64,000 bases of DNA from Candidatus Zixiibacteriota bacterium (lineage in GTDB: Bacteria > Zixibacteria > MSB-5A5 > WJJR01 > JAJRUJ01). Below, piece after piece: positions 39,256-39,843 of this stretch (the stretch's first letter is position 1; every line of letters begins with the position of its first letter). The stretch is from the NCBI GenBank assembly GCA_020051695.1, contig JAGVQM010000019.1:79937-143936 (forward strand), in the 5' to 3' direction. A program made the translations under genes and the position numbers. The notes under the pieces are model-generated. The model was not told the DNA's origin, ran no database searches, and saw only the letters and a program-made list of their open reading frames with translations.

Positions 39256-39843
39256 TTACTTTTTTCCGGGATTGTCGGCCGGACAACAGTTCGCCGCCGT
39301 TGAGCCAAATTTCTGAAATGTCTGCCACAGGGTTTCCGCAGTGATTTGCGGACCCCTCAATACGACATGACCAGTGCCGCCGAGAGCGATGACCGCCGGG
39401 GACGTGGAAAGGGCGTATTTGCGGATGACGGCCGAGAATAACGGGTCATCCGGCGTGAGATTGACTACCTTCAATTTTCTGGTGGTGGTCATAATCCGGG
39501 CGGCGACATCGCCGACCGCCGCGGTCGTCGTCGGTGATCCGGATGCGTCGGCGAGTACCACCAGCCCGAAATCGGCGCCGATAAATTGTTGATCCAAAAA
39601 GGCAATGCCGGTGACAACGGCACCGCCACAGCCACCGGCCCCGGGATCACAACCGGCAACATCAATACCGGAATCGCGCCAGAACAAGGAATATGTCGAA
39701 ACACCAAGCGCTAATAACAATACGAGCGTGAACACACCGGTCTTGAACGCTCTGCTTGGACCACTTGCGGGAGGTTTGCAGCAGGATGCTCCGCCGGAAC
39801 AGTTGCAGTTGGAGTCCATCATCGGGAATCCATCTTTTTTCAT
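39256..39843 (-). CDS. membrane-anchored Cys-rich protein with ArsD-like (thioredoxin-fold metallochaperone) domain
   Basis: N-terminal tail CNCSGGASCC, one TM, CDPGAGGCGG, then a domain resembling ArsD (LVVLADA... KVVNLTPDDPLF... SPAVIALGGTGHVVLRGPQITAETLWQTF), and a C-terminal NCCPADNPGKK. The ArsD resemblance is from memory, not a database search. Confidence 0.4.
   Translation of the reverse strand: MKKDGFPMMDSNCNCSGGASCCKPPASGPSRAFKTGVFTLVLLLALGVSTYSLFWRDSGIDVAGCDPGAGGCGGAVVTGIAFLDQQFIGADFGLVVLADASGSPTTTAAVGDVAARIMTTTRKLKVVNLTPDDPLFSAVIRKYALSTSPAVIALGGTGHVVLRGPQITAETLWQTFQKFGSTAANCCPADNPGKK

Follow-up and report, generated by a model that had tools for sequence, protein, structure and literature searches.

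The window analysed here, a stretch of 64,000 nucleotides from contig JAGVQM010000019.1 of a Candidatus Zixiibacteriota bacterium, contains directly upstream of hgcA and hgcB two genes whose products together look like a CcdA/thioredoxin-like pair that was rebuilt into an apparent Mer-style cysteine relay. The first, here called X, is the open reading frame (ORF) 39256-39843 with a product of 195 aa, and the second encodes a divergent CcdA-like membrane protein. Judged from their sequences, both proteins stand outside the ArsD and MerT families. We give a little less than an even chance to the interpretation that the pair acts, by analogy to the Mer proteins, as a thiol ligand-exchange relay which moves a thiophilic metal, most likely Hg(II), towards HgcAB.

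Several types of evidence argue for such a metal relay. Vicinal Cys pairs stand at every step of the proposed path, and a CXXC motif is found in none of 66 thioredoxin-like domains. The N-terminal tail of X shares its Cys pattern with the C-terminal tail of HgcB, the fourth transmembrane (TM) helix of the CcdA-like protein carries a MerT-like motif, and the regulator ahead of X is an ArsR with a four-Cys insertion. Furthermore, one variant of X (locus L047) has His/Asp-rich repeats in place of its thioredoxin-like domain, while short variants keep the N-terminal tail, the TM helix and a Cys-rich tail. Finally, the pairing of X with the CcdA-like gene is nearly constant and its linkage to hgcAB frequent.

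Gene X and its operon

X belongs to a tightly packed operon on the minus strand with the order arsR, X, CcdA-like gene, hgcA and hgcB, followed by a squalene/phytoene-synthase gene. arsR and X overlap by 4 nt (ATGA, which holds both the start codon of X and the stop of arsR), and the gap between X and the CcdA-like gene measures 9 nt. The translation starts with MKKDGFPMMDSNCNCSGGASCCKPPASGPSRAFKTGVFTLVLLLALGVSTYSLFWRDSGIDVAGCDPGAGGCGG and ends with STAANCCPADNPGKK. Scans with Pfam and NCBIfam (release 20) gave no model that matches X, an Rfam scan of the window gave no match, and a promoter and terminator scan delivered nothing above chance. A preliminary description, made from the letters of the DNA, had taken X for a membrane-anchored protein in which three Cys clusters flank an ArsD-like domain; all three clusters and the hydrophobic helix can indeed be read in the translation. 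The features of X are as follows.

39256-39843, minus strand: gene X, an ATG-initiated ORF for a bitopic protein of 195 aa from an unannotated family.
39778-39807, minus strand: Cys motif CNCSGGASCC of the N-terminal tail (residues 13-22, pattern CxC-x5-CC), predicted to be cytoplasmic from the positive-inside rule.
39676-39747, minus strand: single TM helix, residues ~33-56, ending in the conserved AYSLFW (AlphaFold2 helix at residues 31-56).
39625-39651, minus strand: Cys cluster CDPGAGGCG(G) of the linker behind the TM helix, residues 65-73(74), predicted to be periplasmic; C65 and C72 are conserved among the closer relatives.
39286-39612, minus strand: thioredoxin-like domain (AlphaFold2, Foldseek) without CXXC, residues ~78-186, with the cis-Pro P149, predicted to be periplasmic.
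39259-39288, minus strand: C-terminal tail NCCPADNPGKK, residues 185-195, with the vicinal Cys186-Cys187 (compare the family Cys counts), predicted to be periplasmic.

Extent, Cys tails and topology of the X family

An exhaustive HMMER search over 1.84 billion cluster representatives, with clusters at 50% identity, returned 70 proteins at E ≤ 1e-3, of which 26 also pass E ≤ 1e-10. Nearly all of the 70 are 180-220 aa long and matched end to end. Word-indexed protein searches were far less sensitive and found three proteins (the identical one and two at 59% identity), then seven. Member counts given below use sets of 66 (alignment A2), 72 or 73 sequences. One match, P0028 (368 aa, repetitive), turned out to be a false positive of the family search, and weak Pfam matches to Serum_albumin, TrkA, FeoB-associated Cys-rich protein and Tweety were dismissed as noise or low-complexity.

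The members share a common architecture. The N-terminal tail, in which four Cys are typical, leads through a basic stretch into one TM helix with AYSL at its end; next come a linker that varies between members, a domain of ~100 residues with the sequence blocks DFxFVxLP, FPAVLAL and GEITExxLLxAY, and a C-terminal tail that is usually Cys-rich (e.g. C-PG--CCP or CDPxxCxK). P149 is the only invariant residue of the 66-sequence alignment, in which A45 and S52 of the TM helix are almost invariant. At least two Cys are present in the N-terminal tail of 64 of the 72 members (median 4), a vicinal CC in 62 of 72, and the motif [CC or CxC]-x3-8-CC in 47 of 73. Behind the TM helix, 65 of 66 members possess Cys in the linker and/or in the last 25 residues (both 31, linker only 11, tail only 23). 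The linker holds at least one Cys in 42 of 66 members, often as CCP, while the last 25 residues contain at least one Cys in 60/72, CC in 36/72 and CCP in 26/66. Since such Cys clusters are conserved across ~70 clusters at 50% identity, they are, by sequence comparison, more than a product of chance. Their conservation in orthologs had been named beforehand as a check, and the tails passed it with the counts given above, whereas C65 and C72 of the middle cluster are invariant among the closer relatives only and not family-wide.

With regard to topology, the Kyte-Doolittle maximum over 19 residues reaches at least 1.9 in every member. In 65 of 72 members, the 15 residues ahead of the TM helix carry a higher net charge than those behind it (mean +2.4 vs -0.5), and consequently the positive-inside rule predicts a cytoplasmic N-terminal tail and an extracytoplasmic location of both the domain and the C-terminal tail. 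This N-in orientation is further supported by fusions of Rdx, a cytoplasmic-type domain, to the N-terminus.

Some lineages encode variants of X. The short forms in L063 (140 aa), L085 (~100 aa), L099/L100 and L101 comprise the Cys motif of the N-terminal tail, the TM helix and, on the periplasmic side, a Cys-rich tail that ends in CCP; they lack the thioredoxin-like domain, yet still stand before a CcdA-like gene. Because several lineages thus keep the tails and lose the domain, the latter is, as far as these sequences tell, not the conserved core of a relay or chaperone function. In a metagenome-assembled genome (MAG) of a planctomycete (L047:516-842), the domain is replaced by Cys and (GHxDHA)n repeats rich in His and Asp. 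Just upstream of this variant, at L047:1004-1666, a lipoprotein is encoded that combines a YHS domain with a comparable stretch rich in His.

Another deviation is found in the P0053/P0080 cluster, where an Rdx/SelW-like domain, predicted to be cytoplasmic, is fused to the N-terminus of X. In L010 (~7930-8930) the in-frame stretch ...NIKIRYCVE-TGA-GYLSRA... upstream of the called start amounts to a CxxU selenocysteine motif, and this gene is probably a mis-called selenoprotein with its true start ~70 nt upstream. The same explanation was sought for members that lack the Cys motif of the N-terminal tail and was negative for L019 and L014. An apparent fusion of ArsR with X (P0036) seems to stem from a truncated or frameshifted arsR whose reading continues into X, in keeping with the ATGA overlap, and was not used as evidence.

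The thioredoxin-like domain

Structure prediction with AlphaFold2 on the 66-sequence alignment gave a predicted local distance difference test score (pLDDT) >90 for residues ~80-180, which are arranged in the order beta-alpha-beta-alpha-beta-beta-alpha, while the prediction with three sequences only reached a pLDDT of 48.6 and was too poor for use. Foldseek against the PDB returned 86 matches at E ≤ 1e-3, all of them thioredoxin folds, with a probability of 1.0. At the top, with E from ~6e-5, were the non-catalytic b' domain of PDILT, PDIA6, ERdj5, the N-terminal domain of SasA/KaiB and ordinary thioredoxins, and the target-normalised template modelling score was 0.5-0.7 for single-domain targets. 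Similar results were obtained from sequence: a search of the PDB with the family profile placed thioredoxins on top (best E = 0.003), and a few members give sub-threshold Pfam matches to Thioredoxin, PDIA6_C and Redoxin. In hhalign, E. coli thioredoxin runs in register with the domain, so that P149 falls on cis-Pro76 and A100-S101-G102-S103 on CGPC.

The domain therefore shows the beta-alpha-beta-alpha-beta-beta-alpha core with a cis-Pro before strand 3 that is characteristic of the thioredoxin-like superfamily. What it lacks is the mark of a thiol-disulfide oxidoreductase, a CXXC at the N-terminus of helix 1, and no CxxC is present in the domain core of any of the 66 members. Because the motif is absent from all 66 domains, their sequences indicate a thioredoxin-like fold that is unable to act as thiol-disulfide oxidoreductase through the usual site.

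The preliminary description had gone further and aligned the domain with ArsD, and it had suggested structure prediction as a means to check this. The model, the Foldseek matches and the cis-Pro bear out the thioredoxin-like fold, and the absence of Cys at the positions of the ArsD Cys12/13/18-type loop was likewise confirmed, given that the equivalent positions are A100-S101-G102-S103 and a CxxC occurs in 0/66 members. However, a specific relation to ArsD did not emerge. The Pfam model ArsD (PF06953) matched neither X at E ≤ 1 nor any of the 66 members at E ≤ 10, no ArsD chain was among the PDB sequence matches at E ≤ 10, and ArsD was missing from the top 50 Foldseek matches. In an hhalign comparison with a verified ArsD, only the CC..CC of the N-terminal tail of X aligned with the C-terminal CCGGNTSCC of ArsD, over 12 columns and with a probability of 3.5%. 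The operon furthermore contains no arsA partner, and homologous loci likewise consist of arsR, a DsbD_TM protein, hgcA and hgcB.

The CcdA-like partner

38551-39246, minus strand: divergent CcdA/DsbD_TM-like polytopic membrane protein, 231 aa (Pfam DsbD_TM).

The neighbour of X matches Pfam DsbD_TM (PF02683) with E = 9e-11 and 41.9 bits, well above the gathering score of 27.1. This is its sole Pfam match, and its subfamily has no model of its own in Pfam or NCBIfam (release 20). The protein of the window reads SAC34N in TM1 and SC149TLIC153C154GP in TM4. The canonical CcdAs of L049, L088 and the second copy in L060 show PC..P, whereas in the X-linked subfamily TM1 reads S[AC]C[NST] and TM4 reads C-x3-CC[GN]P. 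C34 and C149/C153/C154 align with Cys of the canonical proteins; Cys is thus kept at both positions and extra vicinal Cys are added. With conserved Cys in TM1 and TM4 and a score above the gathering threshold, the protein falls within the CcdA/DsbD_TM group.

The same protein had been called MerT-like in the preliminary description. Its TM4 string CCGPLLPVVLG does resemble TM1 of MerT, CCLGPLVLIALG / SACCLGPLVLIALG (SACCLGPL), for which we used a MerT sequence that is 100% identical to an annotated merT. However, CC-G-P sits in TM4 of a 231-aa protein that passes the DsbD_TM gathering score, and at the profile level (Pfam) no similarity to MerT was detected. The MerT assignment was consequently abandoned. 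The broader idea of a chaperone or relay for a soft metal stays plausible as a hypothesis. A search with the CcdA-like alignment A5 against species-representative genomes gave no match, so that the source lineage has no representative there. Since a canonical CcdA (PC..P) coexists with the X-linked copy in L060, the X-linked protein is not the housekeeping copy. In this MAG of the Phycisphaerales (L060:3685-4398 and 6360-7733), X and its CcdA-like partner follow behind hgcAB instead of preceding it, and the canonical CcdA lies upstream.

Linkage to hgcAB

Loci were collected through X from contigs that encode family members and from a metagenome scan and were analysed by tblastn and hidden Markov models, which led to 18 distinct places including the window. 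Of the 17 determinable loci, 16 have a CcdA-like gene as the very next gene downstream of X, L095 being the exception. Next come hgcA and then hgcB in 10 of 13 determinable loci (exceptions L012/L013, L101 and L095), and co-occurrence with hgcA, a further check that had been proposed, is thus borne out among the loci found through X. Directly upstream of X, nearly all loci have an ArsR with the four-Cys insertion. This linkage persists at 21-25% identity between the X proteins and with differing flanking genes.

To view the linkage from the side of hgcA, the hgcA loci of species-representative genomes (at least 596) were ranked by similarity to HgcA of the window, and the best 80 were surveyed. 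X is present in 7 of these 80 loci, and 6 of the 7 also have the CcdA-like gene. They belong to Latescibacterota, Planctomycetota, Phycisphaerales, Chloroflexota, Eisenbacteria, Zixibacteria and Bacteroidales, with no relation between the flanking genes. Hidden Cys-tailed variants were sought heuristically in the remaining surveyed loci, and none was found. With 7 of 80 loci spread across seven phylum-level lineages, the module is a minority accessory of hgcAB with a phyletically scattered distribution.

The surroundings of the cassette vary between loci. The order secD, a hypothetical gene of 178-180 aa, the cassette from arsR to hgcB and the squalene/phytoene synthase is common to the window (35898-43330) and to L001, whose X is 59% identical to that of the window. 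Given this synteny, the cassette is therefore chromosomal and vertically inherited in the lineage of the window. In two unrelated contigs (L007:4427-5646 and L008:3267-4297), transposase genes of the IS481/rve type lie directly beside the five-gene cassette, which fits horizontal movement. In L012 (161-6241) and L013, the trio of arsR, X and CcdA-like gene occurs without hgcAB, preceded by a DUF2703 protein and beside a coupling protein of a type IV secretion system (TraG/TrwB); this trio may reside on a conjugative element. On the opposite strand near it, both loci encode a membrane-bound ICMT/PEMT-like methyltransferase. DUF2703 is unrelated to X apart from its Cys content.

Proteins with comparable tails were found near hgcA as well. 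In a Chloroflexota MAG, the CcdA-like gene and hgcA are separated by the gene (L048:982-1716) of a lipoprotein that contains CARDB/Ig-like repeats and ends in SSCCPEGSGSSCQ, a CCP tail of the same kind as in X. Two loci without X (L020:6398-8495 and L069:1021-1878) encode, near hgcA, secreted thioredoxin-like proteins that lack CXXC and have the Cys-rich C-termini SGCGAGCSCHH and SGCSGGSCGGGTCK. With weak matches to the X profile (E ~1e-6), they may represent a soluble analogue of X.

ArsR, HgcA and HgcB

39840-40229, minus strand: ArsR/SmtB-type metalloregulator, first gene of the operon (NCBIfam NF033788, 66.1 bits vs cut-off 55; Pfam HTH_5).
37384-38538, minus strand: hgcA, corrinoid protein (NCBIfam HgcA_corrinoid, 444 bits vs cut-off 275; cap helix NVWCAAGKGTF).
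37076-37360, minus strand: hgcB, 2x[4Fe-4S] ferredoxin with the C-terminal tail TEPDCGCGDSQTCC (NCBIfam HgcB_ferredoxin, 120.6 bits vs cut-off 99).

The regulator carries an insertion with four Cys (C34, C35, C41 and C50, at ~40080-40130) that reads SCC-x5-C-x8-CVGE. The corresponding motif [SGF]CC-x5-6-C-x7-9-C[VIA]GE is conserved in the ArsR proteins encoded upstream of X homologs, whereas the four-Cys site of ArsR2 from P. mercurii is found at other positions.

HgcA and HgcB are identified by NCBIfam matches at the equivalog level, the cap-helix motif and an HgcB that ends in ...SQTCC. HgcA has an N-terminal CCC at residues 15-17 (38488-38496) in the context ...APSCCCSP, and its homologs show CCCS, CCCCS or DCCG. 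HgcA commonly possesses an N-terminal CU/CC extension (Haft & Gwadz, 10.1101/2022.07.06.499078), of which the CCC would, by its sequence, be an all-Cys form. The listed hgcB ORF starts at the GTG at 37501 and overlaps hgcA by 118 nt. However, the HgcB_ferredoxin match covers residues 48-141 of this ORF, and since it begins only at residue 48, the true start of hgcB is likely the ATG at 37360. The C-terminal tail of HgcB from the window, CGCGDSQTCC, shows the same CxC-x5-CC pattern as CNCSGGASCC in the N-terminal tail of X, and most HgcB tails in the fetched loci read TEPxCxC-x4-6-CC. The tail of HgcB is generally thought to deliver substrate.

Proposed mechanism and alternative explanations

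Mer transport by MerP and MerT proceeds through ligand exchange between Cys pairs. If the pair described here works in a similar manner, its origin would be a CcdA with a periplasmic thioredoxin-like electron relay that lost the CXXC and gained Cys tails. Hg(II) would then be bound by the periplasmic Cys linker or the C-terminal tail of X, pass to the TM1/TM4 Cys of the CcdA-like protein and move on to the cytoplasmic N-terminal tail of X. From there, it would be handed over to the like-patterned C-terminal tail of HgcB and the N-terminal CCC of HgcA and finally reach the methyl-corrinoid. The thioredoxin-like domain would be a relic of the ancestral CcdA partner that probably only docks X on the CcdA-like protein, and such a limited role would explain why the domain can be lost. 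A more specific scenario, which we put forward tentatively and with clearly less than even confidence, is that X and its CcdA-like partner form a dedicated system for Hg(II) acquisition and hand-off to HgcAB that was derived from a converted CcdA/thioredoxin-like electron relay.

Several observations weigh against the metal relay. The CcdA-like protein keeps Cys in TM1 and TM4, as electron-transferring CcdAs do, and the Rdx domain with its CxxU that is fused to some X proteins is of redox type; taken together, both fit a relay of reductant equally well. The subgroup of P0022, P0027 and P0037 keeps the thioredoxin-like domain, yet has almost no Cys. In addition, the ArsR linked to hgcAB in P. 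mercurii responds to arsenic (10.1101/2022.10.17.512643). Only ~9% of the sampled hgcA loci carry the module, the trio of arsR, X and CcdA-like gene also occurs without hgcAB (L012/L013 and L101), and in L095 X stands alone. Finally, the resemblances between the Cys motifs are, at the sequence level, short and of low complexity.

The main rival to the metal relay, which we consider unlikely, is thus a reductant relay in which the CcdA-like protein passes cytoplasmic electrons to the periplasmic Cys of X. The redox pair would have moved from the CXXC to the tails, X would maintain thiols in the reduced state, be it in the periplasm or further outside or at its own metal-binding sites, and the link to HgcAB would be indirect. 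The membership of the partner in Pfam DsbD_TM with Cys retained in TM1 and TM4, the thioredoxin fold of X with its conserved cis-Pro, the redox-type Rdx/SelW-like CxxU domain at the N-terminus of X in one clade and the trio without hgcAB in L012/L013 and L101 are what such a function would lead one to expect. However, CXXC is found in none of the 66 thioredoxin-like domains, and several lineages do without the domain altogether. As known from Mer proteins, vicinal CC pairs are classic ligands of Hg(II), but they serve poorly as disulfide redox couples. The His/Asp-rich replacement in L047 with its YHS neighbour and the control of the operon by a metalloregulator fit a reductant relay poorly as well. 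Moreover, the hosts appear to be anaerobic, judged by their carriage of hgcAB, and would have little need for periplasmic reductant. Both functions are not mutually exclusive, since the thiols of a metal relay have to be reduced.

The same thiol-relay anatomy could also run outwards, and the pair would then remove Hg(II) or methylmercury from the cytoplasm, or sequester soft metals at the membrane, as a protective accessory of HgcAB rather than its supply line. We regard this as quite improbable, although ArsR-family repressors usually control detoxification genes, the trio in L012/L013 stands alone beside a conjugation gene and DUF2703 in the manner of a resistance cassette, and insertion sequence elements flank the cassette in L007 and L008. 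The cassette lacks an energy-coupling component such as an ATPase or antiporter, methylmercury binds a single thiol and would not require paired or vicinal Cys, and the N-terminal tail of X is patterned like the tail of HgcB with its presumed role in substrate delivery. Least probable by far, and in our view barely worth upholding, is the version of the preliminary description, an ArsD-type metallochaperone domain whose binding site has moved to the tails and which is docked beside a MerT-like transporter. It is true that ArsD has a thioredoxin fold with a CC..CC tail to which the N-terminal tail of X aligns, and that the active-site loop positions of X are Ala, Ser and Gly. Against this stand the missing ArsD signal in Pfam, the PDB sequence search and the Foldseek top 50, an operon without arsA, a neighbour that belongs to the DsbD_TM family and not to MerT, and a thioredoxin-like domain that is optional within the family.

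Significance

How Hg(II) enters methylating cells and by which path it reaches HgcAB is a long-standing question of mercury biogeochemistry. Within the searchable literature on hgcA or hgcAB in combination with DsbD, CcdA, thioredoxin, cysteine-rich, merT or gene neighbourhood, we found no description of the pair; the hgcAB neighbours discussed there are an ArsR-like regulator, arsenic genes and an archaeal toxin-antitoxin neighbour. The three-gene unit of arsR, X and CcdA-like gene thus offers a compact and testable candidate for the supply of Hg(II) to HgcAB. If this function holds true, X and its partner would represent the first genetically defined route of inorganic mercury to the methylating enzyme; they would also help to determine methylation capacity, as an accessory that travels horizontally together with hgcAB. 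The module might also serve as a marker when asking whether the hgcAB loci that carry it methylate more efficiently. Apart from mercury, a CcdA-type protein paired with a partner that lacks CXXC points to an apparent repurposing of a classic redox relay.

Comparison with known systems

Among known systems, CcdA or DsbD(beta) with ResA, CcmG, TlpA or DsbD-gamma resembles the pair in that a DsbD_TM protein stands beside a membrane-anchored periplasmic protein of thioredoxin fold, and the membrane component has Cys in TM1 and TM4 in both cases. In contrast to these partners, X has no CXXC (0/66), bears Cys-rich tails on both sides of the membrane and can lose its thioredoxin-like domain, while its membrane partner differs from canonical CcdA by the extra vicinal Cys (CC[GN]P). 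The operon is furthermore controlled by arsR and joined to hgcAB instead of cytochrome-maturation genes.

With MerT/MerP (and MerC or MerF) the pair has in common Cys pairs at periplasmic, intramembrane and cytoplasmic positions, control by a metalloregulator and a hand-off, here proposed, to a cytoplasmic enzyme with a Cys tail of its own. However, sequence homology is lacking, and a six-TM DsbD_TM fold takes the place of the three TM helices. In addition, the periplasmic and cytoplasmic Cys sites are located on one bitopic protein, and the proposed client is HgcAB and not MerA.

ArsD (PF06953) shares with X a thioredoxin-like fold and a Cys-rich CC..CC tail. Unlike ArsD, X matches no ArsD HMM (hidden Markov model), lacks the Cys12/13/18 site as well as an ArsA partner, and is membrane-anchored and extracytoplasmic. 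The best structural matches, the b' domains of protein disulfide isomerases (PDI) and the N-terminal domain of SasA/KaiB, are thioredoxin folds without CXXC just like the domain of X. These non-catalytic domains are used for protein-protein contact, but they belong to unrelated biology, and the likeness exists at the level of the fold only, with 10-20% identity. Finally, the N-terminal tail of X can be compared with the C-terminal tail of HgcB, whose pattern it shares, and with the N-terminal CC/CU extension of HgcA, which begins ...SCCCSP. All of these are short tails on otherwise unrelated proteins, and their resemblance may be convergent.

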